Shown here piece by piece: positions 2,133-30,186 of a stretch of DNA of 32,000 bases. Numbering within the stretch: the first letter of the stretch is position 1; the number at the start of each line of letters is the position of its first letter. A program made the translations under genes and the position numbers. This stretch comes from Trichlorobacter lovleyi SZ (lineage in GTDB: Bacteria > Desulfobacterota > Desulfuromonadia > Geobacterales > Pseudopelobacteraceae): contig NC_010814.1 of NCBI RefSeq assembly GCF_000020385.1, positions 2,820,001-2,852,000 of the forward strand, written 5' to 3'. The notes below the pieces were generated by a model, which was given only the letters and a program-made list of their open reading frames with translations, was not told where the DNA came from and did no database searches.

Positions 2133-3532
2133 CCGATAAACAGCGTATTCTGCTGATCGATAACGAGGAAGGCCTCTGCCGGATGATGGAACAGGTGCTG
2201 TTGGACAGCGGCTATCTGGTGCGGGCTTATACCAGCCCGGTCAAGGCGATGGAGGAGTTTTCGGCCGCTGCCTGGGACCTGGTGATTACCGACATCAAGA
2301 TGCCGGGGATGACGGGACTTGAGGTGCTGCAGCGGGTCAAGGAGAAGTGCCGTGATCTGCCGGTGATCATCATCACCGCCTATGCCACGGTTGAGATGTC
2401 GATTCAGGCCCTGCGCAAGGGTGCCTACGACATGCTGACCAAGCCGTTTGAGCCGGACGAACTGGTCTTCCGGGTCAAAAACGCCCTGCAGCAGGCCCAG
2501 CTGACTGAAGAAAACCGGGAACTGCGGCGTGAGATCGAAGAAAAGCTGCAGTTTGACAATATCATCGGCTCATCAGGGGCCCTGCGCAATGTGCTGGACA
2601 AGGTGGCCAAAGTGGCGGGCAGGGACACCTCGATCCTGATTACCGGTGAATCAGGCACCGGCAAGGAACTGATCGCCCAGGCGGTACATATTCACTCCAA
2701 CCGCAAAGAAGGCAGGTTCATGGCGGTCAACTGCGGTGGACTGCCGGAAAGCATCCTGGAAAGTGAGCTGTTCGGCTATCGCAAAGGGGCCTTTACCGGC
2801 GCCGCCGAAAACCGCCAGGGGCTGCTGGAGGCAGCGGATGGCGGCACCCTGTTTCTGGATGAGGTGGGCAACCTGCCGATGAACGTCCAGAAGACCCTGT
2901 TGCGCTTTCTGCAGGAAAAGGAGTTTCGCCGGGTGGGTGACACCAACTCTACCAGGGTGGATGTACGGATCATCTCGGCCACCAACGCCGACCTGAAGGA
3001 AGGGGTCCGGACCGGTACATTCCGGGAGGATCTCTACTACCGCCTGAATGTGGTCAACCTGCACCTCCCCCCCCTGCGGGACCGGATCGATGACATTCCG
3101 CTGCTGGCTGCCCATTTCATCCACCTGCAAAACCAGAAATTCGGCACGGCGGTCAAGGCGTTTGAGCGGGATGCAATGCAGATTCTCTGTACCTTTGAGT
3201 GGCCCGGCAACATCCGCCAGCTGCGTAACGTGATTGAGGCCTGCATGGCCATGGAGGCGAGCGACTATATCAGCCTGGACACCCTGGGACAGGTGATTGA
3301 TCTGCCGGAAGGCCGGATCGTGCCGGCAACGGTCCAGGCCGGGCCGGTCCTGTCCGATGATCTGCCGTTTACCGAGGCGCTGGAACGGTTTGAACGGGAT
3401 CTGCTGCGTGACCTGCTGAAAAAGCATGGCGGCGCTGTGGACAGTGCCGCCAGGGAGGCCGGTATGAACGTGGCCACGCTGTACCGCAAGATCAAGCGCT
3501 ACGGCCTGAAGAAGGAAGAGTACGCCGACTGA
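2129..3532 (+). CDS. Sigma54-dependent response regulator, NtrC/Fis family (REC - AAA+ - HTH)
   Basis: Receiver domain with LVITDIKMPGM. Walker A GESGTGKE, the sigma54-contact GAFTGA loop, and a C-terminal Fis-type HTH (AAREAGMNVATLYRKIKRYGL). Has a 4-nt ATGA overlap with the kinase gene. Confidence 0.95.
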   Translation: MTDKQRILLIDNEEGLCRMMEQVLLDSGYLVRAYTSPVKAMEEFSAAAWDLVITDIKMPGMTGLEVLQRVKEKCRDLPVIIITAYATVEMSIQALRKGAYDMLTKPFEPDELVFRVKNALQQAQLTEENRELRREIEEKLQFDNIIGSSGALRNVLDKVAKVAGRDTSILITGESGTGKELIAQAVHIHSNRKEGRFMAVNCGGLPESILESELFGYRKGAFTGAAENRQGLLEAADGGTLFLDEVGNLPMNVQKTLLRFLQEKEFRRVGDTNSTRVDVRIISATNADLKEGVRTGTFREDLYYRLNVVNLHLPPLRDRIDDIPLLAAHFIHLQNQKFGTAVKAFERDAMQILCTFEWPGNIRQLRNVIEACMAMEASDYISLDTLGQVIDLPEGRIVPATVQAGPVLSDDLPFTEALERFERDLLRDLLKKHGGAVDSAAREAGMNVATLYRKIKRYGLKKEEYAD

Positions 3533-3579
3533 TCCTGAAAGCTTCTGCTTGCAGTTACGATAAAAATCAAATACAAGAC

Positions 3580-5976
3580 TTGATCAATCCTTTTTCAAAA
3601 GGGCGTGATCCGGTGCCGACTACTCCCGTTGCAACTCTCCACCTTCGAAAGTGTGCCTGCCGGCTGTTCATGGCGCTGATCGCATCATGTCTGCTGCTGG
3701 TCACTGGTGTTTCCCCGGCATCCGGCAGCCAGGTTCAGCACTACCAGGAATCGCAGCTTCCATCCGTTCAGCACGTCCAGCTCAGCCCTGCTGAAAAGCA
3801 TTACCTTGAGCAGCTCGGTCCGATTACCGTCTGCCCTGATCCTGACTGGGTTCCCTACGAACAGATGGATGCCCGGGGCAACTTTACCGGTATCGCAGCA
3901 GATCTGCTGAACCTGATTGCACAGCGGCTCGGCATCAGTTTCCGTTATGTCAAGGCCAAGGACTGGGATGAGGCGGTTGCCCTCTCCCAAGCTGGCAAGG
4001 TGCTGCTGCTCCCCTTTCTGAACCAGTCACCGAAACGCGAACAGTGGCTTACCTTTACCGAACCGCTGTTCAGCGACCCCAACGTCTTCATCACCCGCGA
4101 AGAGCACCCGTTCATTACCGATGCAGCCCTGCTGAAAGACAGGACCATAGCCGTTCCCAGCGGCACCTCGATTGAGGAAAAGGTCCGCCGCGACTATCCC
4201 AACCTGAAGATTCTGAACACCGGCAACTCGGAGGCCGAGGTATTCAAAGCGGTTGCTGAACGTCGAGCTGATCTTACCCTGCGTTCATTAACTCTATCAG
4301 CCTATACCATCCGCAAGGGGGGCTGGTTTACCCTCAAGATCGCCGGTCAGGCACCTGACGAATATGTCAACCGCCTGCGGATCGGTGTGCTCAAGACGGA
4401 GCCGATGCTGCGGGATATCCTGAACAGGGGCATTGCCACCATTACCCCCCATGAGCGCGAAGAGATTGTCAACCGCCATGTCAACATTACGGTGGTCAAG
4501 CCGATGGACTACGGCTTTATCATGAGGATTGCCGCTCTTCTGGCAACCCTGATCGCTCTTTCGCTCTACTGGAATCTCCGCCTCAAACGGATCAATGCCG
4601 CACTGCAGGAAAGCGAGCGTAGCAAATCGGTCCTGCTGGCAAACCTGCCGGGTATGGCCTACCGCTGCCGGCTTGACCGTGACTGGACCATGGAATTTCT
4701 CTCCGACGGCTGTCTGATGCTGACCGGCTACTGCAGCGATGATCTGGTGCAGAACAGACGCCTCTCCTTCAACGACCTGATTGTTCCGGAATACCGGGAC
4801 CAACTCTGGGAGGCCTGGCAGCAGGCGGTCCGGGACCGCCAACCGGTACGGCTTGAATACCGGATCATGACCGCCGACAATAAAGAGAAATGGGTACTTG
4901 AGCAGGGTGTGCCGGTCTTTGACACCGAAGGTAGCGTACAGGCCCTTGAGGGGATCATTGTCGACATCAGTGAGCTCAAACAGATTGAGGCGCAGATACA
5001 GCATCTGGCCAGCTATGACAACCTGACCAGCCTTCCCAACCGGGCGCTCTTCAGCGACCGGATTGATCGGGCCCTGCTGTCTGCACAGCGCAACAGCTCC
5101 AAACTGGCGCTCTTTTTCATCGACCTTGACCAGTTCAAGCCGATCAACGATGAGCTGGGCCATGATACCGGTGACTGGCTGTTACAGGCAGCTGCGCAGC
5201 GGATGGCCGAGTCGGTGCGGGAATCTGACACGGTTGCCAGAATTGGCGGCGACGAGTTTGCCGTACTGCTGCAGAACATCGCCACAGCACAGGATGCCCG
5301 CACTGTGGCAGAGAAGATACGTACAACCCTCAACCGCCCTTTTATCACGCCGAGTGGAGTAACCCTGCATATTTCCTGCAGCATCGGCGTTGCCCTCTAC
5401 CCTGAGGATGGCGACAATCAGCGCGACCTGCTCCGCGCTGCAGATGAGGCGATGTACCGCGCAAAAAAAAGGGGACGCAATGCGGTTGAACTGTGCCAGC
5501 CGCTCGGATCACAGGCCGGGCCGGCCGCCAGCCGATCAATCATCAGGCTGGCCTGGAAGGCGGAGTACCTTAGTGGTGAGCCGGGTATTGACGCAGAGCA
5601 CCAGCAGCTGTTCCGGATGGCCAACCAGCTCTTTGAACAGGCAGCCTCACAAAAAAGTGACCCCGCAGGTTTTAACGCAGCTCTGGATGATCTGTTGCAG
5701 CATGTCACCTCACATTTTGACAACGAAGAGGCCTTGCTGAGACGGATCGGCTATAGCGAGCTTGAAGAACATGTCCGTCAGCATAGCCAACTGAAAGAAC
5801 AGGCCGTCAGCTTGAGGCAGGTTGCTGACAAACGGGAGATTTCAACCGGTGAACTGGTGGACTTCCTGGCCATCAGGGTGGTGCATGAACACCTGCTGGA
5901 GGCTGACCGGAACTATTTTCCTCTGCTGAGGCCGCTTGCCCCCGCCCAGGACTCTACCCCTGGAGCCTCCAGCTGA
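3580..5976 (+). CDS. Diguanylate cyclase: periplasmic solute-binding (SBP_bac_3-like) domain - TM - PAS - GGDEF - C-terminal hemerythrin-like domain
   Basis: GGDEF active site ARIGGDEF with an RESD I-site 5 aa upstream. The C-terminus carries hemerythrin-type His/Glu motifs (DAEHQQLF, HVTSHFDNEE, EEHVRQH, VVHEHLLEAD). The N-terminus reads as signal/TM (RKCACRLFMALIASCLLLV) followed by an amino-acid-binding-protein-like domain. The start is uncertain: TTG 3580, in-frame GTG 3613, or ATG 3670. Confidence 0.88.
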   Translation: MINPFSKGRDPVPTTPVATLHLRKCACRLFMALIASCLLLVTGVSPASGSQVQHYQESQLPSVQHVQLSPAEKHYLEQLGPITVCPDPDWVPYEQMDARGNFTGIAADLLNLIAQRLGISFRYVKAKDWDEAVALSQAGKVLLLPFLNQSPKREQWLTFTEPLFSDPNVFITREEHPFITDAALLKDRTIAVPSGTSIEEKVRRDYPNLKILNTGNSEAEVFKAVAERRADLTLRSLTLSAYTIRKGGWFTLKIAGQAPDEYVNRLRIGVLKTEPMLRDILNRGIATITPHEREEIVNRHVNITVVKPMDYGFIMRIAALLATLIALSLYWNLRLKRINAALQESERSKSVLLANLPGMAYRCRLDRDWTMEFLSDGCLMLTGYCSDDLVQNRRLSFNDLIVPEYRDQLWEAWQQAVRDRQPVRLEYRIMTADNKEKWVLEQGVPVFDTEGSVQALEGIIVDISELKQIEAQIQHLASYDNLTSLPNRALFSDRIDRALLSAQRNSSKLALFFIDLDQFKPINDELGHDTGDWLLQAAAQRMAESVRESDTVARIGGDEFAVLLQNIATAQDARTVAEKIRTTLNRPFITPSGVTLHISCSIGVALYPEDGDNQRDLLRAADEAMYRAKKRGRNAVELCQPLGSQAGPAASRSIIRLAWKAEYLSGEPGIDAEHQQLFRMANQLFEQAASQKSDPAGFNAALDDLLQHVTSHFDNEEALLRRIGYSELEEHVRQHSQLKEQAVSLRQVADKREISTGELVDFLAIRVVHEHLLEADRNYFPLLRPLAPAQDSTPGASS

Positions 5977-7301
5977 TGCGGGCTCCCGTGCTGATTGGTG
6001 CAGCAGCTGCATTACTGACCTGGTCAAACGTGGCACAGGCTGCAGAGAGCGACACCCGCTTGCTCCGGCAGTTGCAGGAAACCATCCGGCAGCAACAGCA
6101 GGTGCTGCAGCAACAGGCGGCACAGCTCCAGGGGCAGGCCGAACAGATCCGGCAGCAGGCAGACCAGCTGCAGAAACTGCAGCAGCAGGTCAGCAACCTG
6201 TTGCACAAGGCTGCAGAGCAACCATCAGACCCGGTGGCGCTCACCAAGCCGGAACCGGCTTTCCGGCAACCTCCCCCGGCAGTTGTTGCCCCGGGTAACG
6301 ACAGAATCAAGCTGACCCTCTCCGGTCAGATCAACCGCGCCATCAATGTTGTATCGGACGGCAGCGGAACCAGCGTCTACCATGTTGACAACAACGTCTC
6401 CAACTCACGTTTCAGACTGACAGGGGTCGCTGAGCTCAGCAATGAGCTGACCCTGGGCACCCGGCTGGAAATGGCCTTTACGGCAGATGAATCCTCAAAG
6501 GTCTCGCAGGATAACCAGGCGCCCGGTACCTACGTGAATGCCCGCTGGGCAGACATCTCACTGGCCAGCAAACACTTTGGCAAACTTTCTCTGGGCAAGG
6601 GCTACACCGCCTCCTACTTCACCGCTGGTTCCGACCTCTCCAAAACCGATATCGTGCTCTATTCGTCTGTGGCCGACATCGCCGGCGGGCTGAAGTTCCG
6701 CAGCAAAGACGGTCAGTTGACCGGCATAACCCTGTCAGACGTCTTTACCGATTACGACGGCCTGAATGTCAAATCCCGGTTGCGCTACGACAGCCCAACC
6801 CTGTACGGCTTCCATCTGGCCGGTTCACTTGTGTCAGGCCAGCGTTCGGATCTGGGGCTGTTTTGGGGGGGAGAAGGGTACGGTTTTCAGGGGGCAGCCA
6901 GTTTTGGCCTGGCAAATCCACGTCTTGAAGACAGCCGTCTGCAGTATGACGGTTCCTGTTCACTGCTCCATACTGCAAGCGGCCTAAACCTGACTCTCTC
7001 CAGCGGCATGCTGGAAAAAAAGAGCGAGCGGAACGCCTTCAGCTACTACGCGAAACTGGGCTGGCTGGCCAACCTGACCAGCCAGGGCAGCACCGCCTTT
7101 GGGGTTGACTTTTCCCGTTCCGAAAACGGATCCTCATCGGGCGACCGGGGCAGTTCGGTCGGGGCTGCAGTGGTACAGGAGTTTAAAAAGGCCGCCACCG
7201 AGCTGTACCTGCAGTACCGGGTCTATTCACTCCACAGGGGGGACGGCACCCCGCTCTACGACATCAATGCCGGCACTTTGGGGGTCAGGGTCAAATTCTG
7301 A
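5976..7301 (+). CDS. Outer-membrane porin-like beta-barrel protein with N-terminal Gln-rich coiled coil
   Basis: Signal peptide MRAPVLIGAAAALLTWSNVAQA. Next comes a heptad-like Q/L-rich stretch of about 55 aa. The remaining ~340 aa have alternating amphipathic strands and end in a C-terminal Phe (LGVRVKF), as is typical of OM barrels. The start overlaps the DGC stop (TGATG). Confidence 0.7.
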   Translation: MRAPVLIGAAAALLTWSNVAQAAESDTRLLRQLQETIRQQQQVLQQQAAQLQGQAEQIRQQADQLQKLQQQVSNLLHKAAEQPSDPVALTKPEPAFRQPPPAVVAPGNDRIKLTLSGQINRAINVVSDGSGTSVYHVDNNVSNSRFRLTGVAELSNELTLGTRLEMAFTADESSKVSQDNQAPGTYVNARWADISLASKHFGKLSLGKGYTASYFTAGSDLSKTDIVLYSSVADIAGGLKFRSKDGQLTGITLSDVFTDYDGLNVKSRLRYDSPTLYGFHLAGSLVSGQRSDLGLFWGGEGYGFQGAASFGLANPRLEDSRLQYDGSCSLLHTASGLNLTLSSGMLEKKSERNAFSYYAKLGWLANLTSQGSTAFGVDFSRSENGSSSGDRGSSVGAAVVQEFKKAATELYLQYRVYSLHRGDGTPLYDINAGTLGVRVKF

Positions 7302-7339
7302 TCCGCCTTTACCGCTTCGCACAACGTCCAACACCGCAT

Positions 7340-7648
7340 TTACTGCTGATCACCGCTCCCGCCGCCGTACATATCCAGCCATTGCTGCTGGGGTGTACGG
7401 CTATCACCGTATTGTACGACCACACCATCCTCACGCTGGTATGAACATGACCAGCCGGGCCGGTCTGCCTTGTCAAAGGTGGGGTAGTCACGGGGATGTT
7501 CCAGCGGATCGTACGGTTCAGAATAATTGCTCCAGTCCGTTGGCCGCGGGCAGCGTTCATCTCCGCGGTAGTCACCGGCAGCAAACGCCTGTACTCCCAA
7601 ACTTACGGCTATAATCATAAAGGCCAATTGCACGATTCTTTTTAACAT
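7340..7648 (-). CDS. Small secreted hypothetical protein (102 aa)
   Basis: Clear Sec-type signal peptide MLKRIVQLAFMIIAVSLGVQAFA. The mature part has 2 Cys, is Pro/Asp/Tyr-rich, and carries no motif I recognise. GGAAGGGGG lies upstream of the ATG. Confidence 0.55.
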   Translation of the reverse strand: MLKRIVQLAFMIIAVSLGVQAFAAGDYRGDERCPRPTDWSNYSEPYDPLEHPRDYPTFDKADRPGWSCSYQREDGVVVQYGDSRTPQQQWLDMYGGGSGDQQ

Positions 7649-7716
7649 GGCACAGGCCCCCTTCCAGTTTCATAGTTTCCATGAGTAAAGTCTAACATAA
7701 TTCCCGATTCATGTGA

Positions 7717-11355: not shown

Positions 11356-13317
11356 CTACCAGATGTACTCTTTGGCAAAGGCCCGTTTATCATGCCCGGA
11401 AAGCACATGCAACACCCGTAACTGCTTCAGCCGTACCGGCGAAAGCGACCCCAGCGGGATATAGACAATGGTCCGGCCGATCCTGGCGGCATGCTGTTTG
11501 AAAATGCTGCGTGGCGGCTTTGCCGCAACATAGACCACATTCCGTTCCGTTGAGTAATCCAGCGCAGCCAGCAGCAGTACCTCGGCCCTGCTGTCGGCAA
11601 AACGGTAGTCAGGGTCGCTCCAGACCTCCATCAGGCGACGGGGAGGATAGGAGAGCATGAAGCCGCCGTATTCACAGCGGCAGATCCCCGGCCCCACCAC
11701 ATTTGCAGCCGGATCAGTGGCATAGAAGGCCATATCCGACTCCTGGTCATGTTCACCGAGCCAGGTGGTCTGGTAGGGGTACTCACCACGTCTGCCTTCA
11801 CTGAAGATCATGACCACGCTGCCGACGCCCCCCTTGGCCCTGACCTGCTGCCGTACGTAGATAGCCCCTTCATGCATGTTCCGCAAGGTCTCACGCATGT
11901 CAATGCCGTCGAGCAGCGAGGTGGAGAACTTTTCACTGCGGGACTGTTCCTCCGACAGCTGCAGGCTCCCCTTTTGTTTGAGAAAGTTGCCGAAGTTCTC
12001 AATGGCAAGGTCTTCAGGGGGGTAGGAACAGATCGAAGGGTTGTCAAACCCCTCCAGCCATTCTCCGGGCCGTTTCTCCCGCTTGCGCTGCATCAAGCGC
12101 AGGCCGGAAAGTCCCTTTTTACGTTGCTGTCGCGGCCGGAACCGGATCTGGCGTTGTCCTCCCCACAGCTCTTCCGCCGAGATGCTGCGGTCAGGCAGAT
12201 CACTGTTTTCCTGTTGCCAGGGATAGCTGACGGCCAGGCGGCAGAAGGCATAGGCAAAGTTATCATCCAGACAGCCGCGGGCAGCCGCCAGCAGCTGGAA
12301 CAGATCCGGCAGCAGCATCTTGTCCAGCAGGGCGTAGTTGCGGGCAAAACGGAAGAAGGCCCGTTTCTGCCAGATATGCACCGGTTCGCCGGTTTCCTGT
12401 TTGTAATGGCGGGCCGCTTCGCTGAACAGGTGATAGATCATCCGCTGCCGGTCAGGAAAGCGGCCTGCTGCCCCAAGCTGGTGGGCCGAACGCCGGATAG
12501 CCGCATCCATCACCTCTGCCTCAGGCAGTTCCTGCCTGCCGCCGCTGATCAGTTCCAGTGCATGGAACTGCTTACGCAGCCCGTTGCCGCGCTCACGGGG
12601 CAGGTCCGGCAGCCCGTGTCTCCGGTATTCATAGACGGCTGACAGAAAGGGGAACTCAGCCAGCACCTCACCGCAGCACTCAGGATGCAGATTCCAGAGG
12701 GTTATCCCTTCCCGCTGCTTCCGCGCCATCGGGGCTGCCTGGGGCCGGTCATACAGCTCAGCCACCCGCTGCAGATGGGCCATACCGCAGACAAACAGAA
12801 TCCGCTGATGTTCCCGCCCGAGCTGCTGCAGGGCGTAGGCCATCCCCTGCTCACGGCGGCGGTCGGCATGGCAGGGGATCTCTGCTGCTGTTGCCTCACA
12901 AAAGGCCTGATAATAGGCAGCCAGACCTATGCGGGCAATGCTGTAGGAGTCTGGCAGCGCTTCACGGTGGCGGGGGTAGCGGTCAATATCCGGATCAACA
13001 AAATGCAGCGGAATCCCCAGCTCCATAGCCAGCCGCCCGGCCTCGACCAGGGGATCTGCAGGCTCGACAAGCAGATGAACCGACGACTCACGGCCATCGG
13101 CCTCTTTGACCGGATAGCTGACCAAACTGATCTGGGGCAGTCGTGCCAGGGCACGGCGGAAGGGGGCTGCAAGGGTTGGCGGCAGCTCAATGGCAATGGC
13201 ATCAGGGCGGATCTGCTGCACGGCCTGTCGAACCAGATGGGCAAACTCCATCCGGTAGTGCAACACCGGCAGCCCGGACACAGGACCAAAGTGATGAAGA
13301 AAGAGTCGTCGCGGCAT
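11356..13317 (-). CDS. 653-aa conserved-looking protein of unknown function (N-terminal TraB/ChaN-like, DUF5682-like by recollection)
   Basis: Long ORF whose start lies 2 nt after the stop of the upstream AAA+ gene. N-terminal motifs are LHHFGPVSG, PDAIAIELPP and FVCGMAHL. I found no Walker, MIDAS (DxSxS) or TM motif. The family assignment is from memory, not a search. Confidence 0.75.
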   Translation of the reverse strand: MPRRLFLHHFGPVSGLPVLHYRMEFAHLVRQAVQQIRPDAIAIELPPTLAAPFRRALARLPQISLVSYPVKEADGRESSVHLLVEPADPLVEAGRLAMELGIPLHFVDPDIDRYPRHREALPDSYSIARIGLAAYYQAFCEATAAEIPCHADRRREQGMAYALQQLGREHQRILFVCGMAHLQRVAELYDRPQAAPMARKQREGITLWNLHPECCGEVLAEFPFLSAVYEYRRHGLPDLPRERGNGLRKQFHALELISGGRQELPEAEVMDAAIRRSAHQLGAAGRFPDRQRMIYHLFSEAARHYKQETGEPVHIWQKRAFFRFARNYALLDKMLLPDLFQLLAAARGCLDDNFAYAFCRLAVSYPWQQENSDLPDRSISAEELWGGQRQIRFRPRQQRKKGLSGLRLMQRKREKRPGEWLEGFDNPSICSYPPEDLAIENFGNFLKQKGSLQLSEEQSRSEKFSTSLLDGIDMRETLRNMHEGAIYVRQQVRAKGGVGSVVMIFSEGRRGEYPYQTTWLGEHDQESDMAFYATDPAANVVGPGICRCEYGGFMLSYPPRRLMEVWSDPDYRFADSRAEVLLLAALDYSTERNVVYVAAKPPRSIFKQHAARIGRTIVYIPLGSLSPVRLKQLRVLHVLSGHDKRAFAKEYIW

Positions 13318-13319
13318 GG

Positions 13320-14138
13320 TCAGGAAAGGTACGGAAGCGCCTCGTCCCCCAGAATACGTTCAACCGCTGTTGCCAGCATCTCACGGGGGGGACAGTTGCT
13401 GACGGCAGACATCTTCAGGGCGTAGCGGGCGATATTGATGCCGTCCCGTACCGAATAGCGTTCATCCCTGGCATGGGCCTGCTGGAGAAAATCAACCACG
13501 TAACGCAGGATCTCCGGTTCTGCAAAGGGCAGGTTTTCCTTCAGGATCAGCAGCTCTTCGTCCGCCTCGGGAAAATCGATATAGATCTGGGGTTGCAGGC
13601 GGGAATGGATATACTCGGGGATCTCAAAGGTAGAGGCGTCCTCGTTCATGGTCACCACAATCCTGAAATCGCGGTGCGCCGGGATTCTGAGCCCGGTAAT
13701 CACCGACTCGACATAGCGGCGGTCATCCAGCAGGGGAGCCAGGGAGGCCCAGGATTTCTCGCTCATCCGGTTACCTTCATCCAGGATCAGCACCCCGCCG
13801 TTTACCATGGCAGACACCAGTGATGAGCCCACGTACTGAATGGTACCGCCCGGCCCGATCACCGGTGTCACAATCAGATCCTCCGGCCTGGTATCCATGG
13901 TGGCCTGAAACAGATAGACCGGCCTGTTCAGACTTCTGGCTGCTGCGTAGGCCAGGGTTGTCTTGCCTACCCCCGGCTTACCGATCAAGCGGGGATTAAA
14001 CGGGATGTCACGGGCCTCAAGCACCATCCAGGCTGCCAGCAGCTGGCGTAACAGCTCGTCCTGTCCGATCCAGTTCAGTGCCAGATCAACCGGCCTGGCC
14101 AGCGAAAGGGTGATACCATCTATGGTGGTCTGTTGCAT
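13320..14138 (-). CDS. MoxR/CbbQ/NorQ-class AAA+ ATPase (AAA_5-like), 272 aa
   Basis: Walker A IGKPGVGKTT, Walker B GGVLILDEGNR, sensor region RIVVTMNE, and a C-terminal helical lid. GGAG RBS lies 7 nt upstream. Confidence 0.9.
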   Translation of the reverse strand: MQQTTIDGITLSLARPVDLALNWIGQDELLRQLLAAWMVLEARDIPFNPRLIGKPGVGKTTLAYAAARSLNRPVYLFQATMDTRPEDLIVTPVIGPGGTIQYVGSSLVSAMVNGGVLILDEGNRMSEKSWASLAPLLDDRRYVESVITGLRIPAHRDFRIVVTMNEDASTFEIPEYIHSRLQPQIYIDFPEADEELLILKENLPFAEPEILRYVVDFLQQAHARDERYSVRDGINIARYALKMSAVSNCPPREMLATAVERILGDEALPYLS

Positions 14139-19083: not shown

Positions 19084-20323
19084 CACTGCTGTCCCATAAA
19101 TTGATTGAATAAGAGGAGGCTCTGAGAGCTACTTGTGATATATTGAGTTCGCCAAAACACCAATAAACACGAGGAGATCAGAGCCGTGCCACATAGTAAC
19201 ACAGTCCTTAATCAAGTTGTTCGTTTTTTCAAGAGACATGAATTTGAGACCCTCGCCCGTAAGCATCATGTCGGGCAGCAGTTTCGTTCTTTTTCACGTT
19301 GGAGCCAGTTCACCGCCATGCTGGTTGGCCAGCTAACGGGCCGTAAAAGCCTGCGAGATCTGGTTGATAATCTCAAGGTTCAAGGACATAAGCTCTATCA
19401 TCTGGGAACCAGGGATGTACCCCGTTCAACATTGGCACGGGTGAATGAAGAACAGCCACATCAGTTGTACAAAGAGCTCTTTCACAAACTGCTGGGTCGT
19501 TGCCAGGCCATTGCGCCGAAGAACCGGTTCAAGCTGGACGCCAAGCTGTACCTGCTTGATGCCACGGTCATCAACCTCTGCCTGAAGGTGTTTCCCTGGG
19601 CCAGCTACCAAAAGGCAAAAGGGGCCATAAAGCTGCATGTCGGTCTTTCTGCTGACGGCTATCTGCCAGAGTTCTTCGATGTCACCACCGGCAAAGAGCA
19701 TGAGATCAACTGGGCCAGACTGCTCAAACTGCCCACCGGCTCTTTTGTGGTCTTTGACCGTGGTTATACCGACTACGACTGGTATCAGGCCCTGATGGAC
19801 AGCAGCATCTTCTTTGTAGCCCGGCTCAAGGACAATGCCTTGGTTGAGTACTTCAAGAAACGTCCGGGCCGCAGGTCACAGGGAGTGCTCACTGATCAGG
19901 AAATCAGCCTGAACGGGATCAAGGGCAGCCTCCGCCTGGTTCATTTTGTTGCTGAAGATGGAAACGAGTACCGCTTCGTCACCAACGCAAACCACATTCC
20001 TGCTGCACTGGTGGCCGAATTGTACAAGGAACGCTGGCAGATTGAGCTGTTCTTCAAGTGGATCAAGCAGAACCTGAAGATCAAGGCGTTTTACGGCACC
20101 TCGGAGAATGCAGTGCTGACGCAGATCTGGATAGCACTCTGCGTGTACCTGGTACTGGCCTGGCTGAAGTTCATGTCAAAGATCACCATTACGATGCAGC
20201 AGATGTTACGGTTATTACAGCTCAATCTGTTCGAACGAAGAGACCTGGAAAGCTTATTCAAACCAACGAAAGCATTGCCAAATCCTCAACTGGCGCTGCT
20301 TTGAAAACTATGGGACAGCAGTG
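19084..20323 (+). mobile_element. Intact IS4-family insertion sequence (1240 bp)
   Basis: The terminal inverted repeat CACTGCTGTCCCATA is perfect over 15 bp (19084-19098 and, as reverse complement, 20309-20323). The element has a single DDE transposase ORF and 9-bp direct repeats outside the ends. Confidence 0.9.
19186..20304 (+). CDS. IS4-family DDE transposase
   Basis: GTG start. DDE contexts are LLDATVINL, VVFDRGYTDYDWY and the Y-x2-R-x3-E-x6-K signature in YKERWQIELFFKWIK. Confidence 0.92.
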   Translation: MPHSNTVLNQVVRFFKRHEFETLARKHHVGQQFRSFSRWSQFTAMLVGQLTGRKSLRDLVDNLKVQGHKLYHLGTRDVPRSTLARVNEEQPHQLYKELFHKLLGRCQAIAPKNRFKLDAKLYLLDATVINLCLKVFPWASYQKAKGAIKLHVGLSADGYLPEFFDVTTGKEHEINWARLLKLPTGSFVVFDRGYTDYDWYQALMDSSIFFVARLKDNALVEYFKKRPGRRSQGVLTDQEISLNGIKGSLRLVHFVAEDGNEYRFVTNANHIPAALVAELYKERWQIELFFKWIKQNLKIKAFYGTSENAVLTQIWIALCVYLVLAWLKFMSKITITMQQMLRLLQLNLFERRDLESLFKPTKALPNPQLALL

Positions 20324-20332
20324 ACTATTCAC
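20324..20332. repeat. Target-site duplication, right copy (ACTATTCAC)
   Basis: See the left copy. Confidence 0.85.
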
Positions 20333-20870: not shown

Positions 20871-22472
20871 CTACCCCAGGATGGCCTTCAGATCTTCCTC
20901 AGCCGTGGTAATCGGCATGATGTTGAAGTTCTCCACCAGGAAGGCCAGCACATTGGGGGTGATGAAGGCCGGCAGTGAGGGTCCCAGGCGGATGTTCTTG
21001 ATCCCCAGCGACAGCAGGGTCAGCAGGATTACCACCGCCTTCTGCTCGTACCAGGAGAGGATCATGGAAAGAGGCAGGTCATTCACGCCGCACTCAAAGG
21101 CACCGGCCAGGGCCACCGCGATCTGGATGGCGGAGTAGGCGTCGTTGCACTGGCCGATATCCAGCAGGCGCGGGATGCCGCCGATGTCGCCGAACTCCAG
21201 CTTGTTGAAGCGGTACTTGCCGCAGGCCAGAGTCAGGATGACGGTATCCTGGGGAGCCTTCTCGGCAAACTCGGTGTAGTAGTTGCGACCTGATTTGGCG
21301 CCGTCGCAACCGCCCACCAGGAAGAAATGCTTGATCTGACCGGCCTTGACCGCAGCAATGACCTTGTCAGCCACCCCCAGCACGGCGTTGTGGCCGAAGC
21401 CGGTCAGGATCTCCTGGCCCGGGTTTTCCGGCAGAGACGGACACTCCAGCGCCTTGTTGATCACTTCGGAGAAGTCCCAGCCGTTGATGTGGGTTACACC
21501 GGGCCATTGTACCAGGCCCCAGGTGTAGAGACGGTCCTTGTAGGAGTCGGCCGGACGCTGGATGCAGTTGGTGTTGAAGATGATGGCACCGGGGAAGTTG
21601 GGGAATTCCCTGGCCTGATCCTGCCAGGCACCGCCGAAGTTACCCACCAGGTGCGGATATTTTTTCAGGCCGGGATAGCCGTGGGCCGGCAGCATCTCGC
21701 CATGGGTATAGATGTTGATCCCCTTGCCTTCGGTCTGCTTGAGCAGTTCTTCCAGCATCTTCAGGTCATGGCCGGTCACCAGGATACCTTTGCCTGCCTT
21801 GGTACCCAGGTTGACCGGGGTCGGTACCGGAGCGCCATAGGTTTCATTATGGGCCGTATCCAGCAGCCCCATTACGGTCAGGTTCTGCTTGCCGCATTCC
21901 ATGCAGAGCCCCACGAAATCCATCAGCCCCAGGTTGGCATCGGTGGTGGCGGCCAGCGCCTTCTGGAAAAAGGCCATGACCTCATCGTTGCTGCGGCCCA
22001 GGATCATGGCATGGTCCATATAGGCGGACATGCCTTTCAGGCCGTACATCAGGATCTCAATCGTAGAACGGATGTCCTCATTGACATGCTGGGTGTTGAT
22101 ACCGTGCTGTTCTCCCTGGGCAACCATGGTGGCCAGGTCGGCAGCAGGCTTCCAGTCAGCCACCGGGCCGCTGATGGCGGCGCCTGAAGCGGCCTTGGCC
22201 TTTTCTTTCAGCTGGTAACACTTTTGAATCAGTTTGGCGATATCTTCGGGATCAAAGTCCACGTTGGTGACGGTGCTGAACAGCGCCTCAATGGTGAAAC
22301 GGTCGATCTCGGCATCCCGGCCGAGCTTGTCGGCATACAGGGCCAGGGACTTCAGGCCGTACAGAAGATGATCCTGCAGGGCGGCCACATCGGGCTTCTT
22401 GCCGCAGACTCCGGAAATATTGCAACCGGTACCGTTGGCAGCTTGCTCACACTGGTTACAGAACATGCTCAT
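20871..22472 (-). CDS. hcp: Hybrid cluster protein / hydroxylamine reductase
   Basis: N-terminal MFCNQCEQ...GC...GVCGK cluster motif and full-length family resemblance. The start was set at ATG 22472 (MSMFCNQCEQ) because AAGGAGG lies 7 nt upstream; the track start is 22505. Confidence 0.93.
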   Translation of the reverse strand: MSMFCNQCEQAANGTGCNISGVCGKKPDVAALQDHLLYGLKSLALYADKLGRDAEIDRFTIEALFSTVTNVDFDPEDIAKLIQKCYQLKEKAKAASGAAISGPVADWKPAADLATMVAQGEQHGINTQHVNEDIRSTIEILMYGLKGMSAYMDHAMILGRSNDEVMAFFQKALAATTDANLGLMDFVGLCMECGKQNLTVMGLLDTAHNETYGAPVPTPVNLGTKAGKGILVTGHDLKMLEELLKQTEGKGINIYTHGEMLPAHGYPGLKKYPHLVGNFGGAWQDQAREFPNFPGAIIFNTNCIQRPADSYKDRLYTWGLVQWPGVTHINGWDFSEVINKALECPSLPENPGQEILTGFGHNAVLGVADKVIAAVKAGQIKHFFLVGGCDGAKSGRNYYTEFAEKAPQDTVILTLACGKYRFNKLEFGDIGGIPRLLDIGQCNDAYSAIQIAVALAGAFECGVNDLPLSMILSWYEQKAVVILLTLLSLGIKNIRLGPSLPAFITPNVLAFLVENFNIMPITTAEEDLKAILG

Positions 22473-22563
22473 GGTGAATCCTCCTTGTTGGTGTGGGTAA
22501 CTCATGGATGAGTTTTACTCGGCTGTATTGGTCAATAAGTATAGCAGCTATTTTTTAAACGGC

Positions 22564-22577
22564 ATGACTGCGGTCAA
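22564..22577. promoter_or_regulatory. CRP/FNR-family (HcpR/Dnr-like) palindrome, site A, hcp-proximal
   Basis: ATGAC-TGCG-GTCAA, one mismatch to TTGAC-N4-GTCAA. A TATACT -10-like hexamer on the minus strand (22543-22538) puts the site near -41.5 of a leftward promoter. Confidence 0.5.
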
Positions 22578-22678
22578 AAAAATCGTTCCCATTAATTGAT
22601 GCAGTCAAAGCGCCTGCATTAACGACGACAGTCCCGTATCAGACTCTCCCCTTTCAAACAGGACAATAGTTGTCTTTT

Positions 22679-22692
22679 TTGACGACAGTCAT
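22679..22692. promoter_or_regulatory. CRP/FNR-family palindrome, site C, proximal to the DUF1858 operon
   Basis: TTGAC-GACA-GTCAT, one mismatch to the same consensus. TATGGT at 22715-22720 falls exactly at -12..-7 if the site is centred at -41.5. Confidence 0.5.
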
Positions 22693-22748
22693 ACTTTTAT
22701 ATATCGGACCACGCTATGGTTTGATCAGAAACGATCAAGGAGGAAAAC

Positions 22749-22970
22749 ATGCAGTTCACTCACGACCTCGGCAATCAGGCCATTCAGGACGTACTCAAGA
22801 CCTATCCGGAAATCGGCGAGATGCTTGCTCGCTACGATATCGGCTGTGTCACTTGCAAGGTAGGGATCTGCCTCTTGAAGGATGTGGTCTCGATCCACGG
22901 ACTATCCAAAGAAGATGAAACGAAGATCGAACAGGAAATCAACACTTATCTGGCTACAAAAGGAGAATAA
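22749..22970 (+). CDS. DUF1858-type hybrid-cluster-protein-associated redox disulfide domain protein (73 aa)
   Basis: Has the family CxxC context (GCVTCKVGIC) and a typical size. AAGGAGG RBS upstream. Divergent from hcp. Confidence 0.85.
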   Translation: MQFTHDLGNQAIQDVLKTYPEIGEMLARYDIGCVTCKVGICLLKDVVSIHGLSKEDETKIEQEINTYLATKGE

Positions 22971-22972
22971 TC

Positions 22973-23428
22973 ATGAGAAATTTGGGATGTGGCTGCCCCG
23001 GCAGCATGGCACGAGTCATTGAACGTCAGGAAACAACCGAAACTAACACCGTCAAGGCGCCCTCTGAGTTGCGGCAGTGGCCGGTACAGCTCCATCTGGT
23101 ACCGCCTACCGCAACCTACTTCAAGGATGCTGAACTGTTGGTCTGCGCCGACTGCGTGGCCTTTGCCATGGGTAACATGCACGCCGATCTGCTCAAGGGC
23201 AAGGCCTTGGCCATCGCCTGCCCAAAGCTGGACGACACGACACCGTATGTTGAGAAACTGTCACAGATCATCCAGACCAACAACACCCCCCGAGTGACGG
23301 TAGCCATCATGGAAGTGCCCTGCTGCCGCGGCTTGTCGATGCTGGTGGCAGAAGCAATCAAGCAGAGCGGCCGGGATGTTCCGGTGGATACGATCGTGAT
23401 CGGAGTTGACGGCAACCGGAGGAACTGA
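22973..23428 (+). CDS. Cys-rich iron-sulfur/redox protein of the QWPVQL-motif family, hcp-associated
   Basis: N-terminal CGCPGS, then RQWPVQLHLVPP...LLVCADCVAFA...ACPKLDD...MEVPCCRGL. I recognise this pattern from ferredoxin-like genes next to hcp in anaerobes. It starts 2 nt after the upstream stop. Confidence 0.78.
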   Translation: MRNLGCGCPGSMARVIERQETTETNTVKAPSELRQWPVQLHLVPPTATYFKDAELLVCADCVAFAMGNMHADLLKGKALAIACPKLDDTTPYVEKLSQIIQTNNTPRVTVAIMEVPCCRGLSMLVAEAIKQSGRDVPVDTIVIGVDGNRRN

Positions 23429-23976
23429 TGAAGACCAACATTACGCAGACATTGGTGGACGAGCACCAACTTATCTTGCGGATGATCGCCCTGCTGGAGC
23501 AAAACGCACCGCTCACGGCGGCTGGCGCATACACCAACTGGCAATTCTATCTGGACGGTATCGACTTCATCCGTCAGTACGCCGACCGTTTTCACCATGC
23601 CAAGGAAGAGGATGTTCTGTTCGAGGCACTGGTGGCAAACGGCATGCCCCGCGACCACAGCCCGGTGGCGGCCATGCTGATGGAGCACGACCTGGGGCGC
23701 TCCCATGTGCGCCAGCTGGAGGAAGCGGTACGTGAGGCCCGGGCTGGCCGCAACGAACGCTACCCGGCAATAGCCGAGCATGCTCTGGCCTATGCCGAAC
23801 TGCTCAAGGATCATATCGCCAAGGAAGATGCAGTGCTCTACCCGTTGGCGGAACGGGTACTGCCGGAAGGCGTACGCGCAGACATCCTTCAGCGCTATAA
23901 GACTGCAGAACAGCGCACACCGGAAGGGTTCAGCCGGCACTACGGCCAGATTGTCGACCAGTACGAAAAAAGTTGA
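23428..23976 (+). CDS. Hemerythrin (HHE cation-binding) domain protein, RIC/YtfE-like role plausible
   Basis: Di-iron ligand motifs VDEHQ, FHHAKEED, MEHD and KDHIAKEDAVLYP. The start overlaps the upstream stop (TGATG). Confidence 0.88.
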   Translation: MKTNITQTLVDEHQLILRMIALLEQNAPLTAAGAYTNWQFYLDGIDFIRQYADRFHHAKEEDVLFEALVANGMPRDHSPVAAMLMEHDLGRSHVRQLEEAVREARAGRNERYPAIAEHALAYAELLKDHIAKEDAVLYPLAERVLPEGVRADILQRYKTAEQRTPEGFSRHYGQIVDQYEKS

Positions 23977-24002
23977 AGATATCAGCTACAAACCATCTTT
24001 AG

Positions 24003-24036
24003 ACCGTTTGCCCCGCTTTGGGCAGGCGGTTTTTTA
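24003..24036 (+). terminator. Rho-independent terminator of the DUF1858/Fe-S/hemerythrin operon
   Basis: 11-bp stem ACCGTTTGCCC / GGGCAGGCGGT (two G-U pairs), 6-nt loop, then TTTTT. Confidence 0.75.
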
Positions 24037-24066
24037 TATTCAATTAACCGATAAAATATCGCTTTT

Positions 24067-24080
24067 TTGACATGGATCAA
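24067..24080. promoter_or_regulatory. FNR/CRP-type box upstream of the nar operon
   Basis: TTGAC-ATGG-ATCAA, one mismatch to TTGAT-N4-ATCAA. TATGCT at 24102-24107 is consistent with a class II (-41.5) arrangement. It lies 63 nt upstream of ATG 24143. Confidence 0.6.
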
Positions 24081-24142
24081 GGTTACGATAAAATAATGTT
24101 TTATGCTCGCGATACAATTAACCGAGGTGAAAGGGGAAAGCC

Positions 24143-24619
24143 ATGAAGCTCGTGTGCGGTATAAGCTGTCTGCTCATCATGTTGCTTGCAATGATCACTG
24201 AACCGTTTGCAGACCAGGCAGTCGATGCAGCCGTGGTGGGGGACGCCAAACGGGGTGCGGCCCGCTTCTCGGGCTCTCTCCCCTTTGCAAAGGGCGCCGC
24301 ACCCTGCGGGGCCTGTCATGCCCTGGCAAACCGGGGTGTCAACGGCGGGAAGATGGCCGGTGACTTGGGCGGCCTGTTCACCCCCGATGGTGCCGATGCG
24401 ATCAAGGATGCCGTCACTGCCATCGAAACACCGGTCATGAAGAAGATGTATACCGCACATCCCTTGTCTGACCTGGAATATGCTGATCTGGCTGCCTTTG
24501 CCCGCCAGCCGGGGCCTGAACAACAGCCGACACCGGGCCGGTCATTGCCCTTGGCCGGCATGGGTGCTGCAGGACTGTTTCTGATCGGATTCGCACTGTA
24601 CAAGAGGAGGATTTCCTGA
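24143..24619 (+). CDS. Monoheme c-type cytochrome, secreted with C-terminal membrane anchor
   Basis: Signal peptide (MKLVCGISCLLIMLLAMITEPFA), a single CGACH heme-binding motif, and a C-terminal TM (LPLAGMGAAGLFLIGFALY-KRR). Its stop overlaps the narG start (TGATG). Confidence 0.8.
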   Translation: MKLVCGISCLLIMLLAMITEPFADQAVDAAVVGDAKRGAARFSGSLPFAKGAAPCGACHALANRGVNGGKMAGDLGGLFTPDGADAIKDAVTAIETPVMKKMYTAHPLSDLEYADLAAFARQPGPEQQPTPGRSLPLAGMGAAGLFLIGFALYKRRIS

Positions 24620-27600
24620 TGGCCGACAACCGGATCAAAGACGAGAGCTGCTGTGGCGGACGGGACTGGGAAGAGTTTTATCGTAACCGCTGGCAGTACG
24701 ACAAGGTGGTGCGCAGCACCCACGGCGTCAACTGTACCGGCGGTTGCAGCTGGATGGTGCATGTCAAGGACGGTATTGTCGGCTGGGAACTGCAGGCCAA
24801 CGACTATCCCCAATTGAGTGGCGACATCCCCAACCACGAACCGCGCGGCTGTCCGCGTGGGATCAGCTACTCCTGGTATCTCTACAGTCCGTTGCGGGTG
24901 AAGTATCCCTATCTGCGCGGCGCGCTGCTGGATCGTTGGCAGGAAGCCCGTGCACAGCATGACGATCCGGTAACTGCCTGGGCCAGCATTGTTGAAAATC
25001 CCGACAGGCGCGCCAGCTACACCTCCCAACGGGGCATGGGCGGCTTCCGCCGGGCCGATTGGGAAACGGTGGTTGAGCTGATCGCCGCCTCCACGGTCTA
25101 CACCGCCAAAAAACACGGACCGGACCGGATCATCGGTTTTACCCCGATCCCGGCCATGTCCATGATCAGCTACGCCGCCGGCACCCGCTTTCTGCAACTG
25201 CTGGGCGGGGTCTGCATGAGCTTCTACGACTGGTACTGCGACCTGCCGCCGGCCTCGCCGCAAGTCTGGGGCGAGCAGACCGACGTCTGCGAATCAGCCG
25301 ACTGGTACAACGCCTCCTACATCGTGCTGTGCGGGGCCAACCTGCCACAGACCCGCACCCCCGACTCCCACTTCATGACCGAAGCCCGTTACCGCGGCGC
25401 CAAGGTGGTGGTCATGTCGCCGGACCTGAACATCGCCAGCAAGTTTGCCGACACCTGGCTGCCGGTGGAACAGGGCCACGACGGCGCCTTCTGGATGGCC
25501 CTGAACCACGTGCTGCTGAAAGAATTTTACGTCGACCGCCAGGTGCCGTTTTTTGAGGAGTACGCCCGCACCTACACCGACCTGCCGTTCCTGGTCAAGC
25601 TGGAACAGCGCGACGGCATCTGGCAGGCTGGCGAACATCTGCGCGCCTCAGAACTAGAGCGCAGCGCCGGAATGGAACAGGGCGAGTGGATCCTGTGCGT
25701 GTCGGATGCAAGCGGCAAGATCAGGATTCCCAAGGGCAGCCTGGGGATGCGCTGGGATTCCAAGCCGGGCAACTGGAACCTGGACATGACCGACGTCTTG
25801 GACAACCAACCGATCGACTGCGCGTTAAGTCTGCTGGGCGACCGGGCAACCACCGTATGTTTCCGCTACGAGGGCGAGCAGGATGCCTTGCGTGAAGTCC
25901 CCTGCCGCAGCATCCAAACCGTGAACGGTGAGGTGCTGGTGACCACCGTTTTTGATCTGCTGCTGGCCCAGTTCGGCGTATCCCGCGACCTGGGTGGCGA
26001 TTATCCGTCCAGCTACGACGATGACAAGCCGTTCACCCCGGCCTGGCAGGAAAAACATACCGGGGTCGGCCGTGAGACCCTGCTGCAGATCGCCCGCGAA
26101 TGGGGTGAGAACGGCGAGAAGAGCAATGGCCGCAACATGGTCATCACCGGGGCCGGGGTCAATCACTGGTACCACAACGACCTGATCTACCGTTCCTTCA
26201 TCACCGCCCTGCTCCTGACCGGCAGCGTCGGCCGCAATGGCGGCGGCATGGCCCACTACGTTGGTCAGGAGAAAGTTGTGCCGCTGGCCCCCTGGACCGC
26301 CGTGGCCATGGCCCAGGACTGGGTCAAGCCGTCGCGGCTGCAGAACACCCCCAGCTTCTGGTACATTCATTCCGACCAGTGGCGCTATGACCGCAACTTC
26401 ACCGACTATTTCAAGCCGGAAACCGGTGAAAACATTCCGGCCCATGCAGCTGATGTCAATGCCAAGGCAGTACGGCTCGGCTGGCTGCCGTTTGCGCCGC
26501 ACTTCAACGACAGCCCGTTACGGTTGATGCAGCAGGCCCACGAGGCCGGAGCAACCGACGATGCAGCTATCCGGGCCTGGCTGGTTAAACGGCTGCAAAG
26601 CGGTGAGACCCGCTTTGCCATTGAAGATCCGGACGCGCCGGAGAACTTCCCCCGTCTCTGGTTCATCTGGCGTTCCAACGCCATCTCGGCCAGCGCCAAG
26701 GGACACGAATACTTTCTCAAACATGTACTGGGCGCACCCAACAGCACGGTTACGGCCAGCGAGGTTGCCAAAGACCAGGTCACGGAATTGGTCTGGCACG
26801 ACAAGGCCCCGGAAGGCAAGATGGACCTGATCGTGGACCTGAACTTCCGGATGGACACCTCCACGGTCTACTCGGACATCATACTGCCGGCCGCCACCTG
26901 GTACGAAAAATCGGATGTCAACACCACCGACATGCATTCCTTTGTCAATTGCATGGATGCTGCGGTACCGCCATCCTGGGAATCCAAGGCCGACTGGAAG
27001 ATCTTCAGCATGATCGCCAAAAAGGTCAGCGAACTGTCTGCTCCCCACTTCCCGGAGCCGTTCAAGGATATCATTGCCGCCCCGCTGCTGCATGATACGC
27101 CGGGCGAGATAGCCCAACGCCGGGTGAAGGACTGGAAACAGGGCGAGTGTGAGCCGATTCCGGGCAAGACCATGCCCAACCTGGCCATCGTAGAACGCGA
27201 CTACGTCAACCTCTACAACCGCTTTATGTCGCTGGGTCCCAACATCGCTCACTTGGGGGCCCACGGGGTCAACTGGGATGCCGACGACGTCCATGCCGAC
27301 CTGCTGAACAGGCTGCCGACCCGCTCTTGGGGCGGCAAAACCTATATTGATCTGGAGGATGAGCGGAACGTGGCCGACACCCTGTTGGCCTTCGCCCCTG
27401 AAACCAATGGCGAACTGGCCGTTCGGGCCTACCAGAACATGGAGGCCCGCATCGGCAAACCGTTGGCCCATCTGGCAGAAGGCAGCCGGAACGTCCGGAT
27501 CAGTTGGGATGACATCACCCGCCAGCCGCGCCGTTTCCACAATTCACCGGTCTGGAGCGGGCTGGTCGACGGCGGCCGTCCCTACTCACCCTATGTGCTG

Positions 27601-28200: not shown

Positions 28201-28204
28201 GGCG

Positions 28205-29656: not shown

Positions 29657-30186
29657 GCACAACCGACGTGTATCAGGCATTAGCCGCCATGATCGCCTAT
29701 CCCCGTGACCGGCAGGAACTGCTGGACAGCTACGCCGTGGTTGCCCGTCATCTGCAGGAGCGGGGACTGACGCTGCCGACGGCCCCGTTTGGTGAGACCG
29801 TGACCAGCTCATCGCTGGCTGAACTGCAGGAGGCCTATGTGGCGCTGTTCGATTTCAATGCCGCCTTGGCCCCCTACCTGGGGCATCACCTCTATGGCGA
29901 CAACCAGAAGAAAGGGACCTACCTTATCGGCCTGAAGGGCGAGTTCCGGCGCTTCGACTTTACGCCAGCCAGCAACGAGCTGCCGGACCACCTGGAGATA
30001 CTGCTGCGGTTTCTGGCCCATCTTGAACAACACGAGCGCCCCGCCTTCCTGCGCAGCCAGATGCTGGCAGGTCTGCACAAGCTGGAACAGGCCTTTGCAC
30101 AGCGTTCTGACTGCCCGTGGGCCTATACCATTGCGGCAACCGGCGCGATCTGCGCTGCTGACTGCGAGGAGGTGACGTCATGCTGA
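29653..30186 (+). CDS. narJ: Nitrate reductase molybdenum cofactor assembly chaperone
   Basis: 177 aa TorD/NarJ-like protein with the ELPDHLEILLRFL motif. ATGA overlap with narH, in the canonical position. Confidence 0.88.
   Translation: MSTTDVYQALAAMIAYPRDRQELLDSYAVVARHLQERGLTLPTAPFGETVTSSSLAELQEAYVALFDFNAALAPYLGHHLYGDNQKKGTYLIGLKGEFRRFDFTPASNELPDHLEILLRFLAHLEQHERPAFLRSQMLAGLHKLEQAFAQRSDCPWAYTIAATGAICAADCEEVTSC

Follow-up and report, generated by a model that had tools for sequence, protein, structure and literature searches.

Among the AAA+ ATPases, those of the MoxR class are regarded as chaperone-like remodelers that require an adaptor with a VWA domain and its metal-ion-dependent adhesion site (MIDAS), and the few solved cases, NorQD, CbbQO and RavA–ViaA, all have such an adaptor. 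With what kind of protein, then, does a MoxR-class ATPase work at a locus where the adjacent gene encodes no VWA protein? This question is raised by two adjacent minus-strand genes within a 32,000-nucleotide stretch of the genome of Trichlorobacter lovleyi SZ (NCBI RefSeq assembly GCF_000020385.1, contig NC_010814.1, positions 2,820,001 to 2,852,000 of the forward strand), hereafter termed the window and numbered from its first letter. One open reading frame (ORF), at 13320..14138, encodes a MoxR-class (AAA_5) AAA+ ATPase of 272 residues; the other, at 11356..13317 with its stop codon at 11356-11358, encodes a soluble, three-domain protein of 653 residues from an unnamed family, hereafter termed the partner. 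A first-pass annotation, made from the bare sequence, had placed both ORFs at these coordinates, with these lengths and a spacing of 2 nt, all of which we confirmed. Our analysis revealed a MoxR ATPase whose gene is accompanied, in Bacteria as well as in an Asgard archaeon, by that of a partner without VWA that contains an uncatalogued domain. This combination is new; a MoxR ATPase with a dedicated partner is in itself an already known type. We propose that the two proteins constitute a VWA-independent MoxR system, in which the partner would be the adaptor or effector of the ATPase, and we put the probability of this reading at slightly below one half (about 0.45).

The two genes are almost contiguous. 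The junction, read directly at 13318..13322 of the minus strand, comprises the TGA stop codon of the ATPase gene and a 2-nt spacer (cc), which is followed by the ATG of the partner gene (...TCC TGA cc ATG CCG). The start codon of the ATPase gene is preceded by GGAG at -12..-9, and no Shine–Dalgarno sequence is present within the 20 nt before the partner ATG. The narrow gap and the missing ribosome-binding site both fit the translational coupling that the first-pass annotation had stated as a fact; coupling of the partner to the ATPase is plausible on these grounds.

The first-pass annotation had left the co-occurrence of the two genes across genomes to be surveyed, and they do co-occur widely. 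Among the 73 Geobacterales genome loci with at least 900 nt of upstream sequence, the ATPase is present in 67 and lies within 300 nt of the partner gene in 60. The commonest gap between the two genes at the Geobacterales loci is 2 nt (21 loci), followed by 3 nt (10 loci); gaps of -4 to +3 nt dominate, and 4-nt overlaps are seen in other clades. At diverse metagenome loci with adequate upstream sequence, an ATPase of the family was found in 36 of 52 (69%), almost always directly upstream. Furthermore, six of the eight sampled distant clades (loci L087, L090, L091, L092, L093 and L095) have an AAA_5 gene encoding 271-311 residues directly upstream of the partner gene. One of them, L092, is a metagenome-assembled genome of Ca. 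Helarchaeota, an Asgard archaeon, such that the adjacency spans Desulfuromonadota, Myxococcota, several uncultivated lineages and an Asgard archaeon. A reciprocal look-up that started from a distant ATPase orthologue also found the partner directly downstream (L178). The partner homologue at this last locus (5915-7705) is split over four reading-frame segments, corresponding to either a pseudogene or frameshift errors of the assembly.

Around the pair, the flanking genes differ in every lineage. We found no conserved third gene, the top neighbor family being present in 17 of about 85 loci and in 9 of 82 loci in two independent sets, and no VWA Pfam domain in the annotated loci. Fusions of the ATPase and the partner are absent from the 120 best ATPase matches and the 150 best partner representatives. 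In seven Geobacterales genomes (L031, L045, L049, L060, L066, L078 and L081), extra DNA of 1.0-4.7 kb separates the ATPase gene from the partner gene. Judged from gene order, the ATPase and partner genes are an autonomous, ancient two-gene module.

The partner belongs to a large family. One search retrieved at least 1713 homologues, all named 'hypothetical protein', and an exhaustive profile search yielded 1490 clusters at 50% identity with E<=1e-3, of which 398 reach E<=1e-30; at least 580 GTDB species genomes contain a relative. With a partner family of this size, the two genes are real.

The ATPase matches Pfam AAA_5 with E=2.6e-19 (70.1 bits against a cut-off of 22). It contains the Walker A motif GKPGVGKT at residues 53-60, the Walker B motif VLILDEG at residues 116-122, sensor 1 (TMN) at residues 163-165, the arginine finger R180 and the sensor 2 residue R231. 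All these elements are invariant in 8/8 aligned orthologues, which come from Trichlorobacter, Myxococcota, an Asgard archaeon and uncultivated lineages and are 56-84% identical to the window ATPase; the motifs FQ-T-D-RPEDL and LLD-RRY-ES are likewise invariant in this alignment. At distances where the partner is 26-37% identical, the ATPase still shows 57-63% identity, which indicates a strong constraint on the ATPase. Two distant ATPase orthologues (L090 4848-5762 and L093 3866-4801) have C-terminal extensions of about 30 residues with acidic stretches, for example DFFFDEDDPMNPDQDPK, which are absent from the window ATPase.

Searching the PDB sequences with the single ATPase gave midasin (7.8e-21), NorQ (8.6e-8) and CbbQ (9.3e-8) as the nearest relatives, and a search with the profile of the ATPase family gave midasin (7.9e-32), CbbQ (4.3e-10), NorQ (3.2e-9) and a MoxR-proper structure (1e-4). 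In the profile search, the ATPase gives a far stronger match to the AAA modules of eukaryotic midasin than to the solved bacterial MoxR ATPases, none of which scores better than 4e-10. The NCBIfam equivalog for GvpN (TIGR02640) is failed by a wide distance, at 40.6 bits against a cut-off of 266.8. Publicly, the orthologues are named 'MoxR family ATPase' or 'AAA family ATPase'; of those with a name, the closest is 97% identical and also from Trichlorobacter lovleyi. The AAA_5 match, the nearest solved relatives and the public names all agree with the MoxR/CbbQ/NorQ-type ATPase seen by the first-pass annotation. By sequence comparison, the protein is a MoxR-class ATPase with CbbQ/GvpN/NorQ as the nearest characterized bacterial group, and is a member of neither this group nor the YehL group of Escherichia coli that we discuss below.

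The comparison with these relatives makes clear what is peculiar about the pair. Like the window ATPase, CbbQ and NorQ, its nearest solved bacterial relatives, are compact proteins of about 270 residues with a dedicated large partner encoded next door. However, their partners CbbO and NorD are VWA proteins, whereas the partner in the window has neither VWA nor MIDAS and no fold similarity in the PDB. In addition, the similarity of the ATPase to CbbQ, NorQ and GvpN is low (E~1e-7 to 1e-10), and no Rubisco, nitric oxide reductase or gas-vesicle genes are found nearby. Midasin (Rea1/Mdn1) shares the AAA_5 module and is the best-scoring solved relative, but it is a eukaryotic protein of ~4,700-4,900 residues with six fused AAA modules and a MIDAS of its own, whereas the window ATPase is prokaryotic, consists of a single module and has a separate non-MIDAS partner.

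The partner itself gave no significant match to Pfam, NCBIfam or PADLOC (0 hits in PADLOC). We predicted its full-length structure by AlphaFold2 (AF2) with 122 diverse sequences, which yielded a model with a predicted local distance difference test (pLDDT) score of 92.6 and a predicted template-modeling (pTM) score of 0.87. The model comprises an N-terminal alpha/beta region (residues ~1-235), a variable linker, a helical region (~266-385), a flexible loop (386-420) and a C-terminal alpha/beta region (~425-653). On the minus strand, these correspond to 12613..13317 for the TIKI/TraB-like N-domain (residues 1-235, assigned by hhalign to DUF5682 and by the viral structure library BFVD), 12163..12522 for the helical middle domain (residues 266-385, from the AF2 secondary structure), 12058..12162 for the flexible basic loop (residues 386-420, RFRPRQQRKKGLSGLRLMQRKREKRPGEW, recognized by a reduced pLDDT at ~400-410) and 11359..12045 for the C-terminal domain (residues 425-653, from a domain-only AF2 model and conservation). 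In agreement with the first-pass annotation, the partner contains no P-loop and no transmembrane segment, the maximum Kyte–Doolittle hydropathy over 19 residues being 1.12. Foldseek against the PDB with the full-length model returned nothing at E<0.1, and PDB sequence searches with three partner profiles (A1, A2 and A9) returned only noise.

Is the partner a VWA protein in disguise? We considered a cryptic VWA domain and rejected it. Pfam searches with the window protein, 46 diverse full-length members and 42 C-domains found no VWA, and neither the full-length model nor the C-domain model has a PDB fold match at E<0.1. The first-pass annotation had reported no DxSxS motif in the partner; this point has to be corrected, as a literal DxSxS is present at residues 376-380 (D376-R-S-I-S380). 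It is a chance occurrence and not a MIDAS: the motif is not kept even by close relatives, the Geobacterales consensus having T at 376, it lies in a loop, and no Rossmann fold accompanies it. The original conclusion that the ATPase lacks a VWA/MIDAS partner is thus upheld.

Conservation within the partner is highest in the C-domain. Across the 122 sequences, G471, E522, H637 and R645 are invariant, and E435, D436, E440, D470, E526 and S527 are conserved to at least 93%; in a further 82 metagenomic sequences, these residues are ~100% conserved. Modeled alone by AF2, the domain reached a pLDDT of 96.7 and a pTM of 0.91. Comparison of this model with 350,542 PDB chains by Foldseek gave a best E of 0.67 with template-modeling (TM) scores of at most 0.22, and Pfam searches with 42 diverse C-domains gave no recurring match even at E<=5. 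A duplication of the TraB-like N-domain was also considered for the C-domain and rejected, with an hhalign probability of 0.2%. The C-domain has no known fold or family and is uncatalogued, in line with the C-terminal part that the first-pass annotation could not recognize.

Between the middle domain and the C-domain, the loop at residues 386-420 has a median length of 36 residues across 122 members, with 31% Lys/Arg and a median net charge of +8. Its length is conserved; its sequence is not, save for the closing PGEW. In a clade of metagenomic sequences (loci L098-L177), the length is kept and the charge is lower, with a median of +3. This loop is a candidate for either a finger entering the ATPase pore or a nucleic-acid-binding loop.

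The N-domain could be linked to families already on record. Aligned by hhalign against a 29-sequence alignment of DUF5682, it gave a probability of 96.8% with E=2.3e-10 over 169 columns. Pfam searches with 46 diverse members of the family found seven that match DUF5682 (best 4.9e-8), three that match DUF5694 and three that match TraB_PrgY_gumN (best 2.5e-3); the window partner itself reaches no Pfam TraB model. The best fold match of the partner in BFVD is a TraB family protein (E=6e-4, probability 1.0, TM(target) 0.42), and no chain of the TIKI superfamily is among the matches listed by Foldseek against the PDB for the partner model. The motifs quoted by the first-pass annotation were located in this domain, with LHHFGPVSG at residue 7, PDAIAIELPP at 38 and FVCGMAHL at 175, and the DUF5682/TraB resemblance that it pointed to holds for the N-terminal ~190 residues and fails for the middle and C-terminal domains. 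The alpha/beta fold of the model and the His/Glu pattern of the sequence suggest that the N-domain resembles the TIKI/TraB/PrgY/erythromycin-esterase superfamily. H20, E44, R155/E156 and G178-x-x-H181 of the partner align with the invariant H11, E35, R175/E176 and H202 of DUF5682, and H20, E44, R155/E156 and G178/H181 are conserved to 79-89% in the 122-sequence alignment A2.

These residues raise the strongest of the alternatives, in which the pair is an ATP-dependent hydrolase or protease: in the manner of two-component AAA+ proteases, the AAA+ ring would unfold or present a substrate, whose peptide or ester bond the TIKI/TraB-like domain would then cleave. Hydrolases of the TIKI superfamily use a 2His/2Glu catalytic set with an essential His–Glu pair (PMC6254334), for which H20, E44, E156 and H181 are the candidates in the partner (79-87% in A2), the equivalence being drawn via the DUF5682 alignment and not from a characterized TIKI enzyme. 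The window partner is on a branch with the full TIKI-type residue set. However, the metagenomic clade, recovered with a distant query and inspected directly in the alignment, lacks much of this set. In ~90% of its 82 sequences, E44 is replaced by P/A (AVPLP for AVELP), E156 by I/V, G178 by S and H181 by D (CSxxDWPW for CGxxH). The same clade keeps H20, R155, every C-domain invariant and the adjacent ATPase, and the replacements are independent of ATPase adjacency. Since the TIKI-type residues are replaced in this clade, TIKI-type hydrolysis cannot be the function of the whole family. The N-domain also evolves faster than the C-domain, and MoxR-class ATPases are remodelers rather than threading unfoldases (PMC3893208, PMC13036017). 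Taken together, we consider the hydrolase explanation unlikely. With the TIKI residues lost in one clade and the C-domain invariants kept, the function common to the family must lie in the C-domain and, where present, the ATPase; the conservation pattern makes the C-domain, and not the TraB-like part, the likely functional core.

The next alternative, which the first-pass annotation had put forward, sees the pair as a reduced form of a four-gene system after loss of its VWA and SWIM genes. A SWIM–MoxR–DUF5682–VWA cluster of the kind that it described for actinobacteria does exist: in E. coli K-12, it comprises yehL (MoxR ATPase), yehM, yehP (VWA_CoxE) and yehQ (SWIM), and YehM is a full-length DUF5682 protein (E=2.4e-98, 330.8 bits, profile positions 1-695). 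YehL–YehM resembles the pair in the window in that an AAA_5 ATPase gene lies immediately upstream of a gene for a large soluble protein. Moreover, the N-terminal ~190 residues of YehM are homologous to the N-domain of the partner and share the pattern H...E...RE...GxxH. In contrast, the C-terminal ~500 residues of YehM are unrelated to the middle and C-terminal domains of the partner. The partner reaches DUF5682 only below threshold (E=0.28, 9.9 bits against a cut-off of 26, residues 150-187 only), and its middle domain shows no independent match to this family. We accordingly rejected full-length DUF5682 membership, the homology being confined to the N-terminal ~170-190 residues. The ATPases are also distant: the window ATPase and YehL are only 22% identical (E=0.002), and phmmer with YehL found none of the ATPases of the family at 1e-3. 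Genes for YehP (VWA) and YehQ (SWIM) are absent at every locus of the window family examined, and the 4766 flanking ORFs from ~170 loci include none that resembles YehP, YehQ or YehL. Of the 'stripped-down two-gene version' in the first-pass annotation, the absence of VWA and SWIM genes stands; descent from the Yeh system fares poorly, with an ATPase that is no YehL orthologue and a two-gene form that is widespread and ancient rather than a local degeneration. A reduced Yeh system is thus very unlikely.

More improbable still is an NTPase-plus-effector system for anti-phage defense or conflict. MoxR-centered conflict systems exist (PMC7159879), the partner has an enzyme-like invariant site, and a Hachiman-like HamA-plus-helicase pair and HicAB are located 3-7 kb away from the two genes in Trichlorobacter ammonificans. 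Against this, neither protein has a significant PADLOC match, the ATPase giving only P-loop-level ones (IetA 1.4e-3, TRIP13 1.6e-3), and the flanks are of housekeeping type at nearly all loci. The pair is near-universal and syntenically stable in Geobacterales (60-97% identity), and conservation of the ATPase across phyla is extreme. Defense genes, being patchy and fast-evolving, typically show the opposite pattern, and viral relatives of the partner family were found at only 2 loci in 2.9 million viral contigs.

The last alternative, in which the pair would act with its neighbors in the uptake of peptides or amino acids, draws on five minus-strand genes from 17845 to 9955 that include a xanthine/uracil-family permease, an S9 peptidase and an SNF-type transporter. 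The five are separated by 32, 24, 2 and 36 nt, and no promoter or terminator better than chance lies between them. This alternative is as improbable as the preceding one: the three neighbors stand beside the pair only in the species of the window (L002-L005), none of the other 80 Geobacterales loci and none of the distant ones having them. We therefore rejected a functional link of the pair to the S9 peptidase and the transporters; the 'transporter/peptidase context' of the first-pass annotation is present in the window and specific to its species.

The VWA-independent system that we prefer would work as follows. A hexamer of the ATPase would bind the partner, and ATP hydrolysis would remodel either the partner or a client held by it. 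The partner would thereby fill the adaptor or effector role that the VWA proteins NorD, CbbO, ViaA and YehP have for other MoxR ATPases. The function, be it metal binding, substrate binding or catalysis, would be centered on the putative invariant site of the C-domain. In NorQD, a finger of NorD inserts into the hexamer pore of NorQ (PMC13036017); by analogy, the basic loop 386-420 would be the best candidate for an element entering the pore of the ATPase. In the clade of the window partner, a hydrolase activity of the TIKI-like domain may come on top of this. The cofactor of a MoxR ATPase is usually dedicated, of VWA-domain type and encoded nearby (PMC3893208), and if the two proteins act together, they would represent another route by which a MoxR-class ATPase is coupled to a client, without a VWA adaptor.

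Several observations weigh against this proposal. About 8% of the Geobacterales loci and 31% of the diverse metagenome loci have no ATPase in the available flank, and the clades L088 and L089 have no adjacent ATPase and show cyanobacterial-looking neighbors (CpeT, DUF2237 and CCB3_YggT). In some lineages, the partner may thus act by itself, or the ATPase gene may be located at another site. The lower loop charge in the metagenomic clade weakens the idea of a pore finger, and no conserved neighbor points to a client, a metal or a substrate. Among individual loci, L018, L040, L041, L055 and L083 have no family ATPase in the available flank, the upstream genes being YicC, Tex, an SNF2 helicase or genes that could not be assigned.

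A bolder proposal, which we hold tentatively and with some doubt, is that the pair adds to the seven MoxR subfamilies an eighth, VWA-independent type of MoxR system, an ancient ATP-driven machine of Bacteria and Asgard archaea with an obligate partner of unseen fold and an invariant Glu/Asp/His/Arg/Ser site. If so, it would bring a new enzyme or metal-handling domain that is activated or gated by an AAA+ ring and has a housekeeping role. In the literature searched, we found no mention of DUF5682, no functional account of yehLMPQ, no pairing of AAA_5 with a TraB-like protein, and no TIKI-superfamily member described as paired with an AAA+ ATPase; the first-pass annotation, too, knew of no function for the pairing, and no functional description of it emerged from this literature. 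The pair would moderately surprise an AAA+ specialist and by itself resolves no long-standing question. The partner family, with ~1,500 clusters at 50% identity, is a large dark family that occurs in culturable Geobacter, Trichlorobacter and Geomonas. Moreover, the homology of the N-domain ties it to the uncharacterized YehM/DUF5682 of E. coli, such that results obtained in either would inform the other.

A few further features of the window and of related loci deserve mention. An insertion sequence of 1,240 bp occupies 19084-20323, with a transposase ORF at 19186-20304 (Pfam DUF4372 and DDE_Tnp_1). An otherwise 99.994%-identical contig (L004, GCA_050171295.1) lacks it and resumes at window position 20324; the insertion is thus strain-specific. 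Beyond it, at 20871-30863, lie nitrogen-oxide genes that encode a hybrid-cluster protein (Prismane, 20871-22505, minus strand), a hemerythrin (23428-23976) and a nitrate reductase of the narGHJI type (24619-30863). A link of the pair to the nitrate reductase or the hybrid-cluster protein, or a NorQ-type role, was considered and rejected, as these genes are located beyond the insertion sequence and are not beside the pair in other genomes. In T. ammonificans (L001), HamA and a DEAD-helicase (Hachiman-like, 2795-5833) and HicAB (1089-1708) are found 3-8 kb upstream of the pair, probably by coincidence. On the other side of the pair in the window, an ORF of 441 residues with no Pfam match (5976-7301) directly follows a gene encoding an SBP_bac_3–PAS–GGDEF–hemerythrin protein, and the same layout is found in L002-L005, contigs nearly identical to the window.

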